Source: Bacteroidales bacterium (GTDB taxonomy: Bacteria > Bacteroidota > Bacteroidia > Bacteroidales > VadinHA17). From it: 55,898 nucleotides of DNA. Position 1 is the stretch's first letter, and each line of letters begins with the position of its first letter. Positions 3 through 45,229 of this stretch are shown in pieces. The notes under the pieces were generated by a model. That model searched no databases and was not told the origin of the DNA. It saw only the letters and a list, made by a program, of their open reading frames with translations. The translations under genes were made by a program, and so were the position numbers. Location of the stretch: NCBI GenBank assembly GCA_012519515.1, contig JAAYQC010000052.1, forward strand, positions 1 to 55,898, in the 5' to 3' direction.

Positions 3-248
3 AATAATTATTTATTGGTTTCACGCCTTGTAACATTTCCCGATAAGAAAACAGATGTTGCGATTACACTGCCTTTTGATCCTTCCGGAACAAAATTAAT
101 GATCTGTGCATATGATCAAAATATGGCGGCATATATTGGCAATTCGAATATTTCACTGAACTTCAACAAATACCGGACTACAATTTCTACATTGATAAGC
201 GGATTTGGCGTATTCGGATCGATGAATTTTTATGAAATGGAATTATAG
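3..248 (+). CDS. 3' end of a CDS truncated by the window edge; hypothetical, C-terminus resembles DUF4249-type lipoproteins
   Basis: Frame +3 is open from base 3 to TAG at 246-248; ends ...ISGFGVFGSMNFYEMEL; AT-rich. Family guess rests only on the GxGVFG ending. Confidence 0.4.
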   Translation, partial: NNYLLVSRLVTFPDKKTDVAITLPFDPSGTKLMICAYDQNMAAYIGNSNISLNFNKYRTTISTLISGFGVFGSMNFYEMEL

Positions 249-391
249 GGAGAATAAATTAAGAATTCATGCCATGGAATAACCTGATGAATACGACCTG
301 ATTCTGCTTTCCGAAAAGGTATTTCCCATAGAAGTCACGCTCTCCGCCAAAGCGGGGCAGGCTCTTCGGAGCATGTCCCGGCACACCAGGG

Positions 392-1252
392 TCAGGTGGG
401 CTCCACATGAATCGTGACCGTCAGATTGGCATAAATATCTTTGAGCTTTTCTTCAATACTATCGCAGTAAGAGTGTGCATTTCCGACCGATTCATTCGCG
501 GGTAGCTCGATATGGACATCCACGAACCTGTAATTGCCTGCCACACGTGTTCTCAGGTCATGAAAGTTTACATCCATTGAGTTGAGGTGCTTTTCAAGCT
601 CTTCAACCTCCTGCTCCGACCATGAAGTATCCAGAAGAGGCGAAAACGCCCTGGCTATAAGGTTGTAGGATTCCTTTACTATGAAAAGAGCCACCAGGAT
701 AGCTATCACCGGATCGAGCCATTCAATTCCCGTGAAATAGATGACAGCGAGGCCGGCAGCAACACCGAGGGATGTGTATACATCTGTCTTCAGGTGCAGG
801 GCATCAGCTTCAAGGGCAAGTGAGCCGGTTTCGCGGGCAACTTTGTACAATCGGCGCGACACTATAATGTTGACAATACCCGAAACAACCATTACAAGAG
901 CCCCTATCCCTACTGCCTGAGGCAGCGAATGACCACCAAGAAGCTTCTTTACTGATTCAACTATAATAATGACAGCCGCTATCAGGATTAAAATCCCTTC
1001 TATCACCCCGGATATGTTTTCAATCTTGCCATGGCCATAGGGATGTTTCGAATCGGGGGGAGTGTCTGATATCCTGACGGCAAAAAAAGCAATAATGGCC
1101 GCCACCAGGTCCATGGAAGAATGAATGGCTTCAGACAGGATACTTACCGATCCGCTTATGATGCCCACGATCAGCTTCATGGCTATCAGCAGCGAATTTG
1201 AGATCACCGATAACCTGGCAACCATTATCTTTTTGTTCTTTTTCGACTTCAT
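392..1252 (-). CDS. Cation diffusion facilitator (CDF/FieF-like) transporter
   Basis: SEAIHSSMD, HPYGHGKIE and ADALHLKTD motifs; C-terminal dimerisation domain ending TIHVEP. Confidence 0.92.
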   Translation of the reverse strand: MKSKKNKKIMVARLSVISNSLLIAMKLIVGIISGSVSILSEAIHSSMDLVAAIIAFFAVRISDTPPDSKHPYGHGKIENISGVIEGILILIAAVIIIVESVKKLLGGHSLPQAVGIGALVMVVSGIVNIIVSRRLYKVARETGSLALEADALHLKTDVYTSLGVAAGLAVIYFTGIEWLDPVIAILVALFIVKESYNLIARAFSPLLDTSWSEQEVEELEKHLNSMDVNFHDLRTRVAGNYRFVDVHIELPANESVGNAHSYCDSIEEKLKDIYANLTVTIHVEPT

Positions 1253-35893: not shown

Positions 35894-36836
35894 GCTTCTT
35901 CGCGTAAATGATATTTATTGCAGAAGGGATAATGCTGAATTCTGCCGGTGTATGCCCCAGCGATTCCCCGTCGGCTTCAATTAACAGCTTTGATTCAGAG
36001 CTTACCTTAAGCCCCTTGCTCCTGTATCCGTCAACCTTCCGGTGGCTCAGTATGGTTCCGTCATAAAGCATGCCCAGGCTTCGTATTATTTCAAACTTCC
36101 CCATTTCCTTTATCACGGTGATGTCGAACAGGCCATCGTCAGGCAATGCATCGGGTGTCTGCCTCATCCCGCCACCGCAATACCTCCCGTTGCCGATATT
36201 GATCGAGAATATTTTTGCATTGCTGGTGATCCCGTCTATTGTGATTTCAACAGGCGTATTCCTGTATGTGATAAGACTGCGAAGAAGGTTGAAGAGATAG
36301 ATAGCCTTGTTGCTTCTGCCTTTTTCCTTCTGCCTGTTGGTCCTTAAAATAACCACCGCTTCAAAACCTGTTCCGGCGATGTTTATAAAGTAGGTCCTGT
36401 GTTTTGCACTTCCGATGTGATAGTCTATAACACCAATGTCATGAAGCAGCGTCTTTCCTTCTTTTATCACAGATACAGCTCCTTCATAAACCAGCGGGAT
36501 ACCGAACATCCTGCCCCAGTCGTTCCCCGTTCCCACAGGTATCAGTCCTATCGTAACCTCCGACGGAAGGCAATGAGTCTGTGTGAAAACCCCGTTGATG
36601 ATCTCGTTAAGAGTCCCGTCGCCACCAACAGATATGATCTTCCTGTATCCTTCAGCCAGCATGGTCCTTGTAAATTCGGTTGCGTCGCCTTTACCGGTCG
36701 TGGTGAGGGCGTTGAAGTTTATGCCATTCTTTCTCAGAATGTCTGATATCCTGCCACTATCTTTTGAACCTTTGGCATTGCCGGCATTGGGATTAAAGAT
36801 AGCACACCATTCAGGCCTCATTATTGTTTCTTCCAT
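35883..36836 (-). CDS. Diacylglycerol kinase family lipid kinase (YegS/DagK-like)
   Basis: NPNAG, GGDGTLNE, PVGTGND, NGRYCGGG and EADGE motifs; start uncertain (36836 or 36821). Confidence 0.92.
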   Translation of the reverse strand: MEETIMRPEWCAIFNPNAGNAKGSKDSGRISDILRKNGINFNALTTTGKGDATEFTRTMLAEGYRKIISVGGDGTLNEIINGVFTQTHCLPSEVTIGLIPVGTGNDWGRMFGIPLVYEGAVSVIKEGKTLLHDIGVIDYHIGSAKHRTYFINIAGTGFEAVVILRTNRQKEKGRSNKAIYLFNLLRSLITYRNTPVEITIDGITSNAKIFSINIGNGRYCGGGMRQTPDALPDDGLFDITVIKEMGKFEIIRSLGMLYDGTILSHRKVDGYRSKGLKVSSESKLLIEADGESLGHTPAEFSIIPSAINIIYAKKLIQ

Positions 36837-36959
36837 CGCGATCGTTTTGGACAAATATCTGAATAAATGAAGAATAAAAGCTTCCCGGAGAAGTTTAAAA
36901 TCGCGATATTACAGAAGTCGCTAAAGATGAGAGCTCAACGAGGTTCAGAAAGGCAGCAT

Positions 36960-37000
36960 TGTTAATAAGATGTTGATAAGGACATATAAAATGTTTACAA
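36960..37000. promoter_or_regulatory. DnaA-box-like 9-mers upstream of parA
   Basis: TGTTAATAA (36960), TGTTGATAA (36971) and TGTTTACAA (36992), compared with TGTGGATAA. Confidence 0.45.
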
Positions 37001-37004
37001 TTAC

Positions 37005-37030
37005 ATTGTTGGCTCCCGGGAGCCAACAAT
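37005..37030. repeat. Perfect 26-bp palindrome in the parA promoter
   Basis: ATTGTTGGCTCCC|GGGAGCCAACAAT; -7 element TACATTTG at 37041-37048. Confidence 0.9.
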
Positions 37031-37086
37031 TCATAAGTAGTACATTTGTAGCTCGAAATCAGTAAGGAATTTCAATCTGTAATCAC

Positions 37087-37863
37087 ATGGGAAGGATCAT
37101 AGCTATCGCGAATCAGAAGGGTGGGGTAGGGAAGACGACAACGGCAATAAACCTGGCGGCCAGCCTGGCTGCCCTTGAAAAGAAAGTCATAATAATTGAT
37201 GCTGATCCTCAGGCTAATGCCACTTCGGGGATGGGCATCGACAACCGTTCGTTAAAGGCGACTGTTTATGATTGTCTCGTTAATGGAAGGGAGCCTGCTG
37301 ATACAATAATAGCGAGCAGCATTGAGAATCTTTCATTGATGCCGTCGAATATCGATCTGGTCGGAGCCGAGATAGAAATGCTTGATATGCCTGAAAGGGA
37401 GAAAATTCTCAAGCGGGTTCTTTCAAAGATTTCCGGGAATTACGATTATGTGATCGTCGACTGCTCTCCCTCGCTCGGCCTTCTCACTGTAAACGCGCTC
37501 ACTGCAGCCAACTCGGTGATCATACCTGTTCAGTGCGAATATTTTGCCCTTGAGGGGCTGGGCAAGCTTTTGAATACAATAAAGATAATTCAGGGCAACC
37601 TGAACCCTGATCTCGAGATAGAAGGCTTTTTGCTTACCATGTACGATTCGAGGCTAAGGCTTTCAAACCAGGTTGCAGAAGAAGTGAACAAACATTTCCA
37701 GCAGATGGTATTCAAGACTATCATTCAGAGAAATGTAAAGCTTTCGGAAGCCCCCAGCTTCGGACAGCCTGCAATACTGTATGATGCAGATTCGAGGGGG
37801 ACCGTCAATTATCTTAATCTGGCCAAGGAGATTATAGAAAAACATAATCCCGACGGCAATTAA
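37087..37863 (+). CDS. parA: Chromosome partitioning ATPase ParA/Soj
   Basis: [30 protein letters not shown] and LSEAPSFG motifs. Confidence 0.97.
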
Positions 37864-37882
37864 CCTGTTAACCTAACTGACG

Positions 37883-38764
37883 ATGACAAAGAAGCAAGCA
37901 TTAGGAAGAGGGCTCGGAGCGTTGATCGATGGTGTTGAAAAAGAAGTTCTGGAGAGAAAAGTAGAACCCAATATGGATATTGCAATCGATTCGATAGATG
38001 GCAATCCCTTTCAGCCAAGAAGTCATTTTGATGAACAGTCGCTTGAGGAACTTGCTGCATCAATAAGGCAAGTGGGAATTGTTCAGCCGCTGACAGTAAG
38101 GGAAACTGCCGGAGGACGTTACCAGCTTATAGCCGGCGAAAGACGGCTCAGGGCCGCACGACTGGCCGGGCTTAGCCATGTGCCCGCCTATATCCGGACA
38201 GCCGACGACCAGGCTATGCTCGAACTTGCCCTGGTGGAGAACATCCAGCGCGAAGACCTCGACGCCATGGAAGTGGCAATAACCTTCCAGCGACTGATCG
38301 AAGAGTGCCGGCTGACTCAGGAACAACTGAGCGACAGGGTGGGAAAACAACGTTCGACAATTTCAAACTACCTCAGGCTCCTGCGCCTTCCCGCGGAAAT
38401 ACAGCTCGGGATACGAAACAAAAGTATAATGATGGGACATGCCCGAACCCTCGTCAATATAGAGAACCCGAAAACCCAGATGGATGTCTATTACCGTATT
38501 ATCGACGACGATCTGTCGGTGAGACAGGTAGAGGAACTGGTCAGATCACTTCAATCAAAAAAAATAAAGGATCCGGCAAAAATCGAAAGAAAAAAGAAAC
38601 TGAACGAGGATTTTAAACAGCTCTCGGAACACCTTAACCGGATCTTCTCAACAAAGGTCAACTTCAGGATTAACGAACAGGGAAAGGGAAAGATAGTGAT
38701 CCCTTTCGATAATCCGGAAGAGATGGAACGCATTTTGGGCCTCTTTGACCGTCTTAACTACTGA
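37883..38764 (+). CDS. parB: Chromosome partitioning protein ParB/Spo0J
   Basis: ALGRGLGAL, NPFQPR, AGERRLRA, ENIQREDL and HTH. Confidence 0.97.
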   Translation: MTKKQALGRGLGALIDGVEKEVLERKVEPNMDIAIDSIDGNPFQPRSHFDEQSLEELAASIRQVGIVQPLTVRETAGGRYQLIAGERRLRAARLAGLSHVPAYIRTADDQAMLELALVENIQREDLDAMEVAITFQRLIEECRLTQEQLSDRVGKQRSTISNYLRLLRLPAEIQLGIRNKSIMMGHARTLVNIENPKTQMDVYYRIIDDDLSVRQVEELVRSLQSKKIKDPAKIERKKKLNEDFKQLSEHLNRIFSTKVNFRINEQGKGKIVIPFDNPEEMERILGLFDRLNY

Positions 38765-38827
38765 AATTAATTATATTTGTCGCTCCGGTCCCGCCGGCAA
38801 TGGGGAAAAAACCGGATTCTGTTGGTT

Positions 38828-39463
38828 TTGAGAACAATTGAAAAAATAAAAATTATTCTCATCGGCTTAATTTTTTGTGTCCCGGCTGTTTTACCGGCAC
38901 AGGATTCAATTGTTGTTGCAAAGCCGGCCAGAAGAGTATTCCGCCCCGAACCGATGAAAGCGACAATGCTTGCAGTTGCTTTCCCGGGCTTCGGCCAGGT
39001 TTACAACAGGAAGTACTGGAAGATACCGTTTGTTTACGCCGGATTCGGCGGACTGGCCTATAGCGTGGGTTTTAACACCGGCAAATACAATGAGATGATG
39101 AAGGCATATCAGGATTTCACAGATAAAATACCTGAAACCGACAGCTATATCGGACTGATAAAGGGAGCTGATCCCTCTGAGTATGACCCTGTCCTTCACC
39201 CCGATACCTATAACCCGTCTTCCAAATCGTGGGTTGAAGATAACCTCCTCAGAGCCGTGGATTATTATAAAAAATACCGCGATCTCAGCTATATCGGCGT
39301 AGCTGTATGGTACCTGATAACCGTCCTTGATGCAAATGTCGATGCCAGCCTGGCAAACTTCGACGTTTCCGATCAGCTCGACCTCCAGATTGCCCCCCTG
39401 GGGATGCCTGTCCCCGGTGTTTACGGTGCAGGCATTAACATGAGTCTTGTTTATAATTTTTAA
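38828..39463 (+). CDS. DUF5683 domain protein
   Basis: PMKATMLAVAFPGFGQVYNRKYWKIP...DANVDA; TATATTTG at 38772-38779 argues for a start downstream of 38777 (TTG 38828 chosen, uncertain). Confidence 0.8.
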   Translation: MRTIEKIKIILIGLIFCVPAVLPAQDSIVVAKPARRVFRPEPMKATMLAVAFPGFGQVYNRKYWKIPFVYAGFGGLAYSVGFNTGKYNEMMKAYQDFTDKIPETDSYIGLIKGADPSEYDPVLHPDTYNPSSKSWVEDNLLRAVDYYKKYRDLSYIGVAVWYLITVLDANVDASLANFDVSDQLDLQIAPLGMPVPGVYGAGINMSLVYNF

Positions 39464-39468
39464 TTCAA

Positions 39469-41022
39469 ATGACCGGAAAAAAGATGATATTTAAGAAATC
39501 AGTTGTCGGATTCCTCCTGACTCTCCTGTTAACGAACCTGTACGCGATAAACGACACCATAATACTGAAATCAGAAATATACACCGAAAAAATTTCCGCC
39601 GACCTCGACAGCCTCGTCAACAGCTGGTACGTCAGACTGGCAATGGAGGGACATATAGATGACTTCATCAGTGATTCAGTGGGAATAGAATATCCCGATA
39701 CCGTGTACAAGGAGAGAATAGGCAAAATCTATTCCCTGATGAAACTTCCCTACAATAGCATAATCAGAAATCATATTCATGTTTATACCATAAAGCAGAG
39801 GAAACAGTTCAGCGCCGTTCTTGGCCTGTCCGATTATTATTTTCCCCGGATAGAGGATATCTTTGATTCCTACGGCCTTCCCGCCGAGTTGAAATATATG
39901 GCAGTCATTGAATCAGCCCTTAATCCGAACGCTGTCTCACGAGCTGGAGCCACCGGCCTGTGGCAGTTCATGTACAGCACGGGGAGAAGCTACGGACTGA
40001 CCATCAACTCGCTGGTCGACGAGAGACGCGACCCGATAAAGGCCACTCATGCAGCTGCAAAATACATAAAGGATCTATATCAGATTTACAACGACTGGAT
40101 ACTGGTTATAGCAGCCTACAACTGCGGTCCAGGAAACGTGAACAAGGCTATCAGACGTTCGGGAAACAAAAAGGATTACTGGGCTATCTACTACAGGCTT
40201 CCGCGCGAGACAAGAGGCTATATCCCGCAGTACGTGGCCGCCGCCTATGCTATGAATTACTATGCAGAACACAAAATCAAGCCTCTGCCACTGAACATTC
40301 CCGTTGCAACCGACACTATAATGGTAAGTACCGATATACACCTTACCCAGATATCGGAGGTAATGGGAATTCCCATAGGTGAACTGAGAGCCCTCAATCC
40401 ACAGTACCGGACAGGACTTGTACCCGGTTCTTCAAAACCTTTCTCACTGACACTTCCGATGAATCACCTGGGCGATTTTATCGACCTTAATGATACCATC
40501 AGAAACTATAAAGCCGATGTGTACCTGACACGGGTCAACCAAACGGCCGACCCCTCACGCTCAACATATGTTCCCCCTGATGTAAAGGGGAAAACCCGGC
40601 TGATATACACTGTAAAGGACGGAGATAACCTGGGATTCATCGCGGAATGGTATAGGGTCAGCCTGTCCGACCTCAGGTACTGGAACAATATCTACAGGAA
40701 TCTGATCAGGGTGGGCCAGAAACTGTCAATCTATGTCGATCCTTCCAGGGCAAGCCAGTACGAGAAAATCAATGACATGACTTTCGCACAGAAACAGGCG
40801 ATGATAGGAAAAACAAGTCCTTCAGCCCCGACGGCCAGTATCATGCAGCCGGTACAGGACGGGGATTTTATCACATACACTGTCAGACCGGGTGATACGA
40901 TATGGGAAATAGTAAAGAAGTACGATAACGTCAGCACAACAGACGTGCTTCAGTTGAACAATATCAGCGATCCGTCGAGGATAAAAGTCGGACAAGTGTT
41001 GAAAATTAAGAAGAAGAGCTGA
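39469..41022 (+). CDS. mltD: MltD-like lytic transglycosylase with two LysM domains
   Basis: VIESALNP, AGATGLWQFM, AAYNCG and LPRETRGY motifs; LysM YTVKDGDNL and YTVRPGDTI. Confidence 0.92.
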   Translation: MTGKKMIFKKSVVGFLLTLLLTNLYAINDTIILKSEIYTEKISADLDSLVNSWYVRLAMEGHIDDFISDSVGIEYPDTVYKERIGKIYSLMKLPYNSIIRNHIHVYTIKQRKQFSAVLGLSDYYFPRIEDIFDSYGLPAELKYMAVIESALNPNAVSRAGATGLWQFMYSTGRSYGLTINSLVDERRDPIKATHAAAKYIKDLYQIYNDWILVIAAYNCGPGNVNKAIRRSGNKKDYWAIYYRLPRETRGYIPQYVAAAYAMNYYAEHKIKPLPLNIPVATDTIMVSTDIHLTQISEVMGIPIGELRALNPQYRTGLVPGSSKPFSLTLPMNHLGDFIDLNDTIRNYKADVYLTRVNQTADPSRSTYVPPDVKGKTRLIYTVKDGDNLGFIAEWYRVSLSDLRYWNNIYRNLIRVGQKLSIYVDPSRASQYEKINDMTFAQKQAMIGKTSPSAPTASIMQPVQDGDFITYTVRPGDTIWEIVKKYDNVSTTDVLQLNNISDPSRIKVGQVLKIKKKS

Positions 41023-41035
41023 TCTATATCCCCAG

Positions 41036-44023
41036 ATGCGTCCATTAAGGTCATTTTTGCTTTTGCTGATATATCTGATCTGTTTTACAGGTCTGGCCTG
41101 GATTTTGCCCTGGAACCCCGGCTTCCCCACTATCAGTAACTTCCTGCCGGAGAAGCTTTTTCAGCCTGCTTCAAATGACCTGCCTGAGCTTAACGGAGAT
41201 GTAAATGACGATTATCATGATACTGTTATCGCTCCTCCGCTGATCACAGTTGAAGCCGATTCCTCAGCAGCCGATACCATAGCCCCGCCACGCGATCCGA
41301 TGTCGGTGTTCTTCGACGGACTGAAGCGTTCTCGTGCAGAACAGATCAGAATACTTTACTACGGTGATTCCCAGATAGAGGGCGACAGAATAACTTCAAG
41401 CATAAGGAGATACCTGAGAAGGGAACATGGTGGAACAGGCCCCGGACTGATGCTTCCCGTAATGCCGGTAAGCTATACCCGGTCATTCTATATCAGGGCT
41501 TCATCGAACTGGAAAAGATACAATTACCTTTCATACCGTAACGCTGAGATAAGTCATAAGGACCTTGGCCCTTTCATGGCCTTCTGCAGGTACATGCCCG
41601 AAGGATCAGTATCAGCATCAAAGGTTAAATCGTGGATAAGAATAGTTCCCTCTGTCCTTGCCGATCCTGCCGAATCGCAGTTCGAATATCTTAGAATATT
41701 TTACAGGAACAGCCAGGGCGATGTGAGTATTGGGGTAAAAGCCGGTGACAACCCCCTCATCTCAGATACATTAAAATCGTCCGGAGAACTTATGGAGTAT
41801 GTATGCCCTCTCAACAATGCATCCAATATCCTTATCGATTTCTCCGGCAATACAAGTCCCGATATTTACGGCATCAGCATCGAAAGCAAGACAGGAGTCG
41901 TGGTCGACAATATCCCGCAGAGGGGCAGTGCCGGGCTTGAGTTTACAATGGTGGATAAGAACAACATCGGGAAAGCCTTTGAACTCCTGAAACCCGACTT
42001 GGTTGTAGTGCACTATGGCCTGAACCTGGCAACAACAATCAGGAGCGATTATTCATACTATGAAAAGGGTCTTGCCAGACAGCTGGATCTTATCAGGGAG
42101 ATATCGCCGGAAGCCGGCCTGCTGGTCATCGGTATGACCGATATGGCCCGTCAGGTTGATGGCCAGGTAAAGTCATATCCCAATATCCCAAAGATTATCA
42201 ATGCACAGAGAAATGCTGCTGCCGGATCGGGAGCTGTTTTCTGGGATGCCAGAAAAGCTATGGGAGGACAGTCATCCATTGTGCATTGGTTCAATATGAA
42301 TCCTCCCCTGGCCAAACCCGACTATGTTCATCTTACCGACCTGGGCGCCGACAGACTTGCACAACTGATGGTAAATGACCTGTTTACACCGGAAACTCCC
42401 GATCCGGTGGTAATGACACCTCCTATGGTGCAGATCGATACATCTGCCCTTGAAAAGGCCGAAACAGTTGTCTCTGCTGTTGAACCCCAGCCTCAGCAAT
42501 CAATTGTAAAGACTGTTGTCTCTGAAATTTTCAGCTACGATCCTGACAGGATATTCGTTTTTACTTCAGCGGCTTTCTGGATTTTCTTCCTTGTGGTACT
42601 GGCAGGTTTCAGCCTGTTTTACAGGAAATTGTTTGCAAGGAACTTCTACCTCCTGCTGATGAGCCTGTTCTTCTACTACAAAGCCGGAGGTCTTTTTCTC
42701 TTCGTTCTGGTTTTTGTTACCATTATCGATTATACCTGTGGCCGCCTGATCCACAGGTCGGATACAAAGGCCGGAAAACGCTTCTTTCTTATCCTGAGCA
42801 TCATTTCCAACATAGGGCTCCTTGTTTATTTCAAGTACACCGGTTTTATTGTTCAGATAATAAATGATCTGTTTGGCACTGAGATCATTGTCAGGGATGT
42901 ACTTGGCGCCCTCTCCAACAGTCTTCTCGGAACAGATTTCAATATAGACTCAATCGTTCTTCCGGTAGGAATCTCTTTCTTCACCTTCCAGTCGCTCAGT
43001 TATACAATCGACATGTACAGGATGAAACTTGAGCCGGTTAGGAATATATTGGATTTCGGATTTTATGTCTCATTCTTTCCGCAACTTGTTGCAGGCCCAA
43101 TTGTGAGGGCATCGGAGTTTATACCACAGCTTTACAGGGAATACAACGTTTCAGCAAGGGAGTTCAGCCATGCCGTGTTCCTGATAATTAAGGGACTTAT
43201 TAAAAAGATAATAATCTCCGATTTCATTGCTGTCAATTTCATCGACAGGGTATTTGAGGTTCCCACCGTTTACTCGGGATTCGAAAACCTGATGGCTGTT
43301 TACGGATACGGCCTTCAGATCTACTGCGACTTCTCGGGATACACCGATATAGCAATAGGATTAGGGCTTATCCTCGGATTCAGGCTTCCTTTCAATTTCA
43401 ATTCACCTTACAAGGCAACTGATCTTTCCGATTTCTGGCGGAGATGGCATATTTCCCTCTCACGATGGCTCAGGGACTATCTCTATATACCTCTTGGAGG
43501 AAACAGGAAAGGCAAGTTTAGAACCATCTTCAACCTCTTGGTTACCATGCTTGTAGGAGGCCTGTGGCATGGAGCAAACATGAGATTCGTGATATGGGGC
43601 GGACTCCATGGCATCGGATTGACCATAAACAAAATAAAGGATTACATCTTTAGAAAACCTATCCGTAAAAGCCGGTTGGCAACAGCGCTTTCAGTTTTCC
43701 TGACTTTCAATTTCGTAAGCTTCTGCTGGATATTCTTCCGGGCCCGGGATATGCACAGCGTTGAACTGATGCTGCGGCAGATATTCAACGATTTCGTGCC
43801 GGCTTCATTTGAAACGGTCTTAAGTGCATACAGCGGAGCCTTTGCCCTGATGGCTGCAGGGTACATAATGCATTTTCTGCCCGCTAAATTCAAGGAATGG
43901 TACAGGGGAATATTCATCAACACCCCGCTTGTCATTCAGTTTATCCTGGTTCTGATTGCCGGATTTCTTATTTTCAGGATGAGCAGTTTTGCCAGCATGC
44001 CGTTTATCTACTTCAGATTCTAA
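41036..44023 (+). CDS. SGNH/GDSL domain fused to an MBOAT O-acyltransferase (PatB-PatA / AlgJ-AlgI-like fusion)
   Basis: N-terminal anchor; GDSQ (41363), RGSAG, YGLN, DYVH (42320); Pro-rich linker; LPVGISFFTFQ, FFPQLVAGPI, QIYCDFSGY, FWRRWHISLS, GLWHGA; C-terminal PFIYFRF. Confidence 0.9.
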   Translation: MRPLRSFLLLLIYLICFTGLAWILPWNPGFPTISNFLPEKLFQPASNDLPELNGDVNDDYHDTVIAPPLITVEADSSAADTIAPPRDPMSVFFDGLKRSRAEQIRILYYGDSQIEGDRITSSIRRYLRREHGGTGPGLMLPVMPVSYTRSFYIRASSNWKRYNYLSYRNAEISHKDLGPFMAFCRYMPEGSVSASKVKSWIRIVPSVLADPAESQFEYLRIFYRNSQGDVSIGVKAGDNPLISDTLKSSGELMEYVCPLNNASNILIDFSGNTSPDIYGISIESKTGVVVDNIPQRGSAGLEFTMVDKNNIGKAFELLKPDLVVVHYGLNLATTIRSDYSYYEKGLARQLDLIREISPEAGLLVIGMTDMARQVDGQVKSYPNIPKIINAQRNAAAGSGAVFWDARKAMGGQSSIVHWFNMNPPLAKPDYVHLTDLGADRLAQLMVNDLFTPETPDPVVMTPPMVQIDTSALEKAETVVSAVEPQPQQSIVKTVVSEIFSYDPDRIFVFTSAAFWIFFLVVLAGFSLFYRKLFARNFYLLLMSLFFYYKAGGLFLFVLVFVTIIDYTCGRLIHRSDTKAGKRFFLILSIISNIGLLVYFKYTGFIVQIINDLFGTEIIVRDVLGALSNSLLGTDFNIDSIVLPVGISFFTFQSLSYTIDMYRMKLEPVRNILDFGFYVSFFPQLVAGPIVRASEFIPQLYREYNVSAREFSHAVFLIIKGLIKKIIISDFIAVNFIDRVFEVPTVYSGFENLMAVYGYGLQIYCDFSGYTDIAIGLGLILGFRLPFNFNSPYKATDLSDFWRRWHISLSRWLRDYLYIPLGGNRKGKFRTIFNLLVTMLVGGLWHGANMRFVIWGGLHGIGLTINKIKDYIFRKPIRKSRLATALSVFLTFNFVSFCWIFFRARDMHSVELMLRQIFNDFVPASFETVLSAYSGAFALMAAGYIMHFLPAKFKEWYRGIFINTPLVIQFILVLIAGFLIFRMSSFASMPFIYFRF

Positions 44024-44050
44024 GCCGGACTGGATAAGGAAAGAACAATG

Positions 44051-45229
44051 CTATAGTATGTTTGATCCCGAAACCGGACGGGCATAAGCCAGTACGTCGG
44101 CGCCTGTTATTTCATCCCTGCACAGGATGATAAGCCTCTCCAGTACATTCCTGAATTCCCTTATGTTCCCCGTCCATTCAATCTTCTGCAGTTCAGCGAT
44201 CGCATCCCTGGTTATAGTTTTCTTGCTCATGCCGTACTCTCTGCATATCATGGTGTTGAAATGTTCGGCAAGGATGGGGATATCATCCACACGCTCGTTG
44301 AGGGTCGGGACATGTATTATTATCACGCTCAGCCTGTGATACAGGTCCTCCCTGAAGGTGTTGCCCTCTATTTCCTTCCTTATGTTCTTGTTGGTTGCTG
44401 CTATAACTCTTACATTGACATGTATATCCTTGTCGGATCCCACCCGGGTGATCTTGTTCTCCTGAAGGGCCCTCAGCACTTTGGCCTGGGCGGAAAGACT
44501 CATGTCGCCGATTTCATCCAGGAACAAAGTGCCACCGTTTGCCTGTTCGAACTTGCCTATTCTTTGCTTGATGGCCGAGGTAAACGATCCCTTTTCGTGT
44601 CCAAACAGTTCACTCTCAATAAGTTCTGAGGGTATTGCCGCACAGTTCACCTCCACAAAGGGGCCTTTTGCCCGGTTGCTCTTCTCGTGTATCTGGTGAG
44701 CAACAAGCTCCTTTCCTGTTCCGTTTGCGCCGGTAATCAGCACCCTGGCTTCAGTGGGCGCTACACGGTCGATCATCTCCTTTACTTTCATGACAGGCTC
44801 CGATTCACCAACTATCTCATACATCTTGCTTACCTTGTTCTTAAGCGCCTGTGTCTGCGTGATCAGAGTAGACTTGTCGGTGGCATTGCGAATGGTGATC
44901 AGTAGCCTGTTCAGGTCAAGGGGCTTTTCCAGAAAATCGTAGGCACCTTTCTTTATGGCATCAACAGCCGTGTCGATATTGCCATGACCCGATATCATTA
45001 TAACCGGAACATCGGAAGAGGTCTCAAATATTTTCTGAAGTACCTCAATGCCGTCCATCTTTGCCATCTTGATGTCGCACAGCACAATATCGTATGAATT
45101 GCTGCCGAACATCTCAAGCCCCGCCGGCCCGTCCTCTGCAAGGTCGACCTCATGTTTTTCATATTCCAGAACTTCTTTCAGGGTGTTCCTTATCGCCCTT
45201 TCATCATCAATAACCAGAATTTTTGACAT
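44051..45229 (-). CDS. Sigma54-interacting (NtrC/NtrX-like) response regulator with no C-terminal HTH
   Basis: REC domain (ILVIDDE, LCDIKM); AAA+ [37 protein letters not shown]; ends 392 aa without a Fis HTH. Confidence 0.92.

Follow-up and report, generated by a model that had tools for sequence, protein, structure and literature searches.

The window analyzed here, the 55,898-nucleotide (nt) contig JAAYQC010000052.1 (assembly GCA_012519515.1) of a Bacteroidales bacterium from the VadinHA17 lineage, codes for a protein that combines an SGNH domain, an MBOAT domain, and a C-terminal FxYxxF acyl-shuttle motif in a single polypeptide. A preliminary description of this DNA, made from its letters alone, had reported one uninterrupted frame of 995 codons bearing an SGNH catalytic set, the MBOAT motifs FWRRWH and GLWH, and a terminal FIYFRF, and all of these are present in one open reading frame (ORF) with the following features:

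41036..44023 (+): SGNH-MBOAT fusion protein, the whole ORF from the ORF list, 995 residues plus stop, ATG start
41042..41104 (+): N-terminal membrane anchor, residues 3-23, a helix with a hydropathy peak of 2.42
41111..41296 (+): tether from anchor to SGNH domain, residues 26-87, weakly conserved, with residues 46-82 at a predicted local distance difference test score (pLDDT) < 50
41297..42385 (+): SGNH domain of predicted Ape1 fold, residues 88-450, from AlphaFold, Foldseek, and phmmer
41369..41371 (+): codon of Ser112 in the block I GDS, the predicted nucleophile, aligned with the Ape1 GDS serine and found in 121/121 aligned rows
41444..41917 (+): β-sandwich lobe, approximately residues 137-294, between SGNH blocks I and II, all-strand in the model
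41924..41935 (+): block II, G297-S-A-G300, with two glycines retained in the alignment
42023..42025 (+): codon of Asn330 in the block III GLN, from the alignment
42320..42331 (+): block V, D429-Y-V-H432, from the alignment
42386..42535 (+): interdomain linker, residues 451-500, conservation ~0.4, residues 456-485 with pLDDT < 50
42536..44020 (+): PatA-like MBOAT domain, residues 501-995, from Pfam MBOAT (E 7.6e-30), DltB structures, and model helices
43448..43450 (+): codon of His805 in FWRRWH, from motif and alignment
43568..43570 (+): codon of His845 in GLWHG, the universal MBOAT histidine, aligned with DltB GFWHG
44003..44020 (+): C-terminal acyl-shuttle motif F990-I-Y992-F-R-F995 (FxYxxF), found in 120/121 aligned rows

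The start of the ORF is well constrained, with 11 open codons upstream of it in a stop-to-stop frame of 1006 codons, and MRPLR precedes the anchor. The SGNH motifs lie at residues 110-113 (GDSQ), 296-300 (RGSAG), 328-330 (GLN), and 429-432 (DYVH), and those of the MBOAT half at 800-805 (FWRRWH), 842-846 (GLWHG), and 990-995 (FIYFRF), the last being the final six residues of the protein. The full-length structural model, with a pLDDT of 87.6 and a predicted template modeling score (pTM) of 0.73, comprises the helix at 3-23, two low-confidence stretches (46-82 and 456-485), and a helical bundle at about residues 512-983 followed by the terminal motif. A homolog alignment (see below) shows a conservation of 0.84 across residues 1-25, and a mean column conservation of about 0.4 in the linker as against 0.7-0.98 in the domains; of the whole chain, the linker clearly ranks lowest in both conservation and model confidence. 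Its previously noted length of about 50 residues stands, but its supposed richness in proline amounts to a mild enrichment (7 of the 41 residues at 450-490, i.e., 17%, versus 5.2% overall).

Such a frame could in principle also result from an error of assembly or sequencing that joins two adjacent genes, or represent a pseudogene in decay. Near relatives do possess SGNH and MBOAT genes that abut each other (gap -54 to +9 nt), which a single error could join, and two loci from the survey described below carry fragmented-looking copies. In L012 (6001-9006) the match to residues 1-995 is spread over 3006 nt in several short ORFs, with the SGNH piece showing 71% identity, and L074 (5533-8570) looks like a fragmented or frameshifted fused copy with overlapping frames. 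However, a homolog search with the fusion protein, in which 7983 of 8000 candidates scored at E <= 1e-3, yielded 120 listed homologs of 881-1014 residues with 58-99% identity, 116 of which span 100% of the query. Their alignment with the query (121 rows) shows that the three elements are conserved in one chain with the SGNH domain first, that S112, G297, G300, N330, D429, H432, H805, and H845 are invariant (121/121), and that the FIYFRF ending is missing from a single row; the linker ranges from 55 to 70 residues among the aligned homologs. The fusion is also found on complete chromosomes (L004, L005, and L009).

The sequencing data speak against an artefact in the same way. All sampled words of positions 41800-43000, which include the junction, are contained in 14 DNA runs from seven studies, and a fraction of 0.54-0.89 of them in six RNA-library runs from four studies. 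Among four runs compared at contig level, two contigs from DNA runs, one of which may be the source of the present DNA, cover 41000-44100 with zero and five substitutions, respectively, and zero indels, and an RNA-library contig covers 42348-42940 without gaps across the linker. The four linker variants seen in these contigs are T451T, T461I, L472F, and V482A (one synonymous, three missense, and no stop), so that the continuous frame through the linker reported earlier is upheld by the reads. We consider an artefactual origin refuted as far as sequence data allow, and would give it practically no chance.

The SGNH half scores just below the Pfam cut-off for Lipase_GDSL_2 (31.7 versus 32.9 bits), but the domain as first proposed from its motifs is borne out by a phmmer match to Neisseria meningitidis Ape1 (4k3u, E 9.4e-17) and by structure prediction. 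Residues 81-480, modeled by AlphaFold from 74 sequences (pLDDT 92.5, pTM 0.90), show an SGNH core with a large all-β lobe inserted after block I. The top Foldseek matches of this model in the PDB are the Ape1 proteins of N. meningitidis (4k3u, E 5.4e-24) and Campylobacter jejuni (8gkd, E 1.1e-22), in alignments of 370-374 columns and with a TM-score to 4k3u of 0.70 (normalized by the model) or 0.79 (normalized by the target); the next match (E 1.9e-8) is 14 orders of magnitude weaker than these two esterases. In the alignment with 4k3u, S112, G300 (G297 in the MAFFT alignment), N330, D429, and H432 fall on the GDS serine, the GING glycine, the GTN asparagine, and the DGVH aspartate and histidine, which we take to be residues 80, 236, 268, 366, and 369 of Ape1. 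On these models the outer domain adopts the Ape1 fold rather than the PatB fold, and the inserted β lobe would correspond to the inserted lobe of Ape1. An identity as PatB/DUF459 (PF04311) was rejected, with no DUF459 match at E <= 0.01.

The inserted lobe of Ape1 has been termed CBM35 (PMC12148441, PMC9487903). The known Ape1 structures (4k3u, 8gkd, 8gld) share with the SGNH half the two-lobed fold and the aligned Ser, Gly, Asn, Asp, and His, but only 17-20% identity, and they differ in motif I (GDS(H/F) versus GDSQ) and block III (G-T-N-E versus G-L-N-L). Of the motifs published in 2005, motif VII, Dx(V/T)H, is represented by DYVH, and the GDSQ departs from motif I, GDS(H/F), to which the GDSH of a second paralog (below) conforms. 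A further departure lies in the setting: Ape1 is a free periplasmic protein, while the SGNH half is fused to an MBOAT and has the PatB-like trait of an anchor (helix 3-23) followed by an unstructured tether.

The MBOAT half was recognized correctly as complete, scoring 104.8 bits with Pfam MBOAT (PF03062, residues 670-895; cut-off 27). MBOAT and MBOAT_2 are the only membrane-domain families found by Pfam; the AT3 domain (PF01757) is not among the matches, and an OatA-type AT3-SGNH fusion was rejected. Residues 638-902 align with DltB structures (E ~1e-26), with H845 falling on the conserved MBOAT histidine. An identity as DltB itself (NCBIfam TIGR04091) was likewise rejected, the score of 161 bits lying below the cut-off of 375. 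The modeled helices at 906-983 lie beyond residue 902, where the DltB alignment ends, and the FxYxxF motif sits at the end of these extra helices, which DltB does not have.

To place the fusion among its relatives, we compared the SGNH and MBOAT halves with ORFs by BLAST at 80 loci from species-representative genomes, terming the SGNH type found in the fusion SGNH-A. The two are fused at four loci (L004, L005, L007, and L009), all in Bacteroidales metagenome-assembled genomes (MAGs). A separate ORF homologous to SGNH-A is present at 35 loci, counting L012 and a weak SGNH match at L068 (E 3e-6), and in 30 of these it lies upstream of the MBOAT gene on the same strand: in 10 split loci the two abut with the gap given above, and in 20 they are 1.2-1.4 kb apart, with an intact ORF of 409-492 codons filling the interval in 16. 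At the other 41 loci the available DNA, which in some cases is a short contig, shows the MBOAT only. Two-gene clusters of SGNH-A and MBOAT are found in several phyla. In three Acidobacteriota MAGs (L057, L063, and L064) the pairing is kept and the order is reversed, with the MBOAT gene preceding SGNH-A.

Most relatives have two or three separate genes, in the parA-parB-DUF5683-lytic transglycosylase context described below. Residues 81-480 match 4373 clusters at E <= 1e-3 among 1.84 billion representatives, and the best 150 of these comprise 135 stand-alone proteins (421-594 residues), 11 shorter fragments, and four proteins of at least 662 residues, three of them at least 800. Among genomes of the same order, 261 of 301 have a match at E <= 1e-10; among the 150 matches listed, a stop-free equivalent of residues 1-995 occurs only in the genome of the window and in one of the same genus (G125). 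Ten order-level matches with long reported frames (900-1200 residues) were rejected as fusions, each resolving into two or three separate genes (10/10).

A quick maximum-likelihood analysis of 52 MBOAT halves groups all 18 fused rows in one clade (Shimodaira-Hasegawa-like approximate likelihood ratio test support of 99), and a single origin of the fusion is therefore likely by this phylogeny; L074, a two-gene row with a branch length of 2.8, falls within the same clade, though its placement is unsure. By gene order and sequence comparison, we interpret the fusion as a lineage-specific joining of the adjacent ape1b-type and pat genes of the Bacteroidetes O-acetyl-peptidoglycan cluster. This cluster, ape1b-ape1c-pat, has been known from Bacteroides and Porphyromonas since the work of Weadge, Pfeffer and Clarke (2005, PMC1199599). 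In it, pat is preceded by an SGNH gene whose motif I is followed by an insert, and in some cases a second SGNH gene lies between the two; the present gene comes from the same phylum and shares the motif VII Dx(V/T)H, and its split relatives show exactly the same arrangement. The equation of SGNH-A with Ape1b rests on this gene order and on the insert. The present gene differs in that a single ORF joins the first SGNH to pat and its genome lacks the middle SGNH, and the interpretation differs in that the 2005 paper took both SGNH proteins as putative esterases.

The middle ORF of the split loci codes for a second SGNH protein, which we term SGNH-B: Lipase_GDSL_2 is found in all five that were tested, one of which also has a LysM domain. 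SGNH-B matches Ape1 better than SGNH-A does (E 5e-20, in one stretch), and the two types differ as follows:

Block I: GDSQ in SGNH-A, GDSH in SGNH-B
Block II: RGS(S/A)G in SGNH-A, GVNGA in SGNH-B
Block III: G(V/L)N(V/L) in SGNH-A, GTN(D/E) in SGNH-B
N-terminus, judged by eye: a PatB-like hydrophobic anchor of ~20 residues and a tether of ~100 residues in SGNH-A, short and signal-peptide-like in SGNH-B

An inserted LysM domain precedes the SGNH C-terminal part of the secreted middle protein in some relatives from Flavobacterium and Bacteroidales (L029:7143-8564 (+) and L096:2937-4310 (+)). In both of the genomes whose cluster shows only SGNH-B and MBOAT (2/2), SGNH-A is encoded elsewhere. Searching fused genomes with SGNH-B recovered either the fused domain or nothing in 6/6 cases, which include three complete chromosomes and the genome of the window (97% complete). 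The latter genome also yielded no second homolog of the fused SGNH domain and no PatB, DUF459 giving only a sub-threshold 19-bit match on a 258-residue protein with a twin-arginine translocation (Tat) signal; besides the fused domain, it encodes three small GDSL_2 proteins of the SGNH type, none of which matches at the PatB level. With an SGNH-B paralog and PatB both missing and the remaining SGNH proteins being small GDSL_2 forms, the fused SGNH domain would hence be the only plausible acceptor of acetyl-Tyr in this genome.

The fusion gene follows a run of four genes on the same strand:

37087..39463 (+): parA, parB, and a DUF5683 gene, which precede the transglycosylase
39469..41022 (+): MltD-like lytic transglycosylase with an SLT and two LysM domains (Pfam), ending 13 nt upstream of the fusion gene

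With gaps of 19, 12, and 5 nt in the parA-parB-DUF5683-SLT run, these genes and the fusion probably belong to the same operon. The same context occurs at fused (L004, L005, L007, L009, and L099) and split (L017, L018, and L019) loci. A scan of 36700-44300 for promoters and terminators stayed near shuffled sequence (20 promoter-like signals versus 12.2, and seven terminator-like signals versus 7.3) and is uninformative for a Bacteroidales genome. The parA/parB context links chromosome-partition genes with wall-remodeling genes in Bacteroidales.

We propose that the fusion protein is probably a single-chain peptidoglycan O-acetyltransferase, derived from the fusion of an SGNH-A ('ape1b'-type) gene with a patA-type MBOAT gene. 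PatA auto-acetylates the tyrosine of its C-terminal FXYXXF motif in a reaction requiring the conserved histidine, its SGNH partner accepts the acetyl-Tyr peptide as donor, and the PatA N-terminus is periplasmic (PMC12148441). By analogy, the N-terminal helix would anchor the chain so that the SGNH domain lies in the periplasm, and the linker would lead to an MBOAT that starts outside like PatA; the external SGNH domain assumed from the outset fits the periplasmic N-terminus of PatA. The MBOAT would then take an acetyl group from cytoplasmic acetyl-coenzyme A and, with His845, acetylate Tyr992 of FIYFRF at its periplasmic mouth, from where the acetyl group might pass to the tethered SGNH domain at Ser112. 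Guided by the β-sandwich lobe, this domain could place it on the C6 hydroxyl of N-acetylmuramic acid, and the O-acetylation might in turn regulate the lytic transglycosylase encoded directly upstream, as O-acetylation blocks such enzymes (PMC1199599, PMC6627197). A docking prediction between the MBOAT (495-995) and SGNH (85-450) halves, run without controls, scored 0.00, with the mark at 0.32, and has no bearing either way.

That SGNH-A would act as a transferase is suggested by its PatB-like uncleaved anchor and tether, as opposed to the signal-like N-termini and Ape1-like motifs (GDSH, GVNGA, and GTNE) of SGNH-B, by its presence elsewhere in the genome when the cluster has SGNH-B alone, and by the finding of no other Ape1-family domain with the SGNH-B query in the six fused genomes. 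Several observations weigh against our proposal. The nearest solved relatives of the SGNH half are esterases, and PatB of C. jejuni (8tlb) appears only at rank 49 in the Foldseek search (E 6e-5), where the SGNH core alone is matched. A replacement of the block II glycine by Ser or Asn has been put forward as the mark of transferases (PatB and OatA) versus esterases (PMC12148441), but RGSAG retains both glycines in 121/121 rows; the canonical block III asparagine is also kept, and by block II the domain looks esterase-like. The periplasmic placement of the SGNH domain is drawn by analogy, and the enzyme activities that we infer for the fusion, the SGNH-A proteins, and the 'Ape1b' proteins are deduced from comparisons. 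The gene is apparently expressed, but RNA libraries may contain DNA. Finally, a genome of the same genus that is 98% complete (G245) has no match to either half, which indicates that the function would be dispensable within the genus.

Given the glycine kept in block II, the fusion might instead join a writer to an eraser, its MBOAT half working as PatA does and its Ape1-fold domain being a genuine esterase of O-acetyl-peptidoglycan, or combining transferase and esterase activity. The transfer would then fall to another protein, or one domain would both add and remove acetyl groups. The fold with its inserted lobe, the conservation of all five catalytic and oxyanion positions, and the block II glycine, in which it is unlike PatB and OatA, would suit such a role. 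So would the lack of a separate secreted Ape1-like paralog in the fused clade (6/6 genomes), where de-acetylation would have to come from the fused domain or an unrelated enzyme. However, a pure esterase would leave the PatA-type MBOAT without an acceptor enzyme in a genome with neither a second homolog nor PatB, the motifs and membrane anchoring of SGNH-A are unlike those of the Ape1-like SGNH-B, and SGNH-A and MBOAT form two-gene clusters in several phyla. We regard these variants, even taken jointly, as unlikely, though deserving of consideration beside the transferase that we favor.

The preliminary description had proposed a self-contained O-acetylase of a cell-envelope glycan: the architecture stands, the SGNH half is of the Ape1 rather than the PatB type, and the acceptor is most likely peptidoglycan specifically. 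Pointing to this acceptor are the best fold matches, which are O-acetyl-peptidoglycan esterases, the adjacent SLT+LysM gene, the LysM domains in some SGNH-B proteins, and the O-acetylation of 27-69% of the peptidoglycan in gut Bacteroides species with ape1b-ape1c-pat clusters (PMC1199599). The same relay might alternatively serve a capsule, an exopolysaccharide, lipopolysaccharide, or a lipid-linked intermediate: the identity of the glycan cannot be deduced from sequence, and homologs are named 'AlgI' or 'DltB' by the Joint Genome Institute (JGI). Yet the operon has no genes for polysaccharide synthesis or export, its members being parAB, DUF5683, and the LysM lytic transglycosylase; the fold search singles out peptidoglycan esterases; and a second, separate MBOAT pair in the genome could serve another polymer. 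A different acceptor thus strikes us as improbable, more so than the esterase variants. The second MBOAT, which is unfused, has 473 residues (L002, contig C32, 1180-2601 (-), Pfam E 1.9e-16) and ends in FIYEMF; it is followed by a 342-codon ORF (146-1174 (-)) with a hydrophobic N-terminus and no Pfam match at E <= 0.001, and the two probably form an acylation pair for a different polymer.

Compared with known systems, the proposed single-chain transferase resembles PatA/PatB/Ape1 of Neisseria and Campylobacter (PMC12148441) in its MBOAT with a conserved histidine and a C-terminal FxYxxF, in a periplasmic SGNH partner that is held at the membrane by an anchor and a long disordered tether, and in a tie to the control of lytic transglycosylases. 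It departs from them in having the SGNH partner covalently N-terminal to the MBOAT, in the Ape1 fold with inserted lobe and canonical glycine as against the DUF459/PatB fold with Ser/Asn at block II, and in the separate esterase gene, which the SGNH-B query did not find in any of the six fused genomes. The Gram-positive AT3-SGNH protein OatA likewise unites a transmembrane acetyl carrier and an extracytoplasmic SGNH transferase in one polypeptide with an acetyl-Tyr intermediate (PMC12148441), but AT3 is unrelated to MBOAT, the SGNH domain is C-terminal, and the tyrosine lies in a loop rather than in a C-terminal motif. In the DltB-DltX-DltD system the MBOAT core aligns with ours and the FxYxxF shuttle motif recurs, whereas DltX is a separate microprotein and the donor is D-alanyl-DltC.

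MBOAT systems are described as using a separate, unfused SGNH partner (PMC12148441, PMC9558356), and AT3-SGNH is named as the sole fused kind in the Discussion of PMC12148441, in agreement with the preliminary description. That account had not known the present architecture to be characterized. No description of a fused MBOAT-SGNH protein was found in the full-text literature searched, which was mostly non-subscription and included PMC12148441, PMC1199599, PMC9487903, PMC9558356, PMC6174289, PMC2824669, and PMC12423673. Proteins of this architecture are common in sequence databases, where they bear generic names, and the fusion, specific to one clade, joins adjacent genes of a cluster known since 2005. 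Being natural and widely conserved, the single chain blurs the current division of envelope acylation into an MBOAT with a separate SGNH and an AT3 fused to an SGNH.

The fusion also offers genomic evidence for which Ape1-like protein of the Bacteroidetes clusters is the partner of PatA. In a Rosetta stone reading, to which we assign even chances, the enzyme that accepts acetyl from PatA in Bacteroidota and several other phyla would have the Ape1 fold, be tethered to the membrane, and combine a canonical, hydrolase-type oxyanion hole with a glycan-binding lobe, rather than being of the PatB type. If so, the members of the 'Ape1b' subfamily, which have been listed as esterases since 2005, would in fact be transferases, the block II replacement of Gly by Ser/Asn would not be a general transferase signature, and in the fused clade, where the secreted paralog has been lost, the writing and erasing of O-acetyl groups might both fall to a single tethered domain. 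Reconstitution of the transfer from PatA to PatB with separate proteins was confounded by non-specific labeling (PMC12148441), and a single chain would be a convenient object for capturing the His-Tyr-Ser acetyl relay by cryo-electron microscopy or trapping. In itself, the fusion gene is an ordinary envelope gene of the housekeeping type from an environmental anaerobe.

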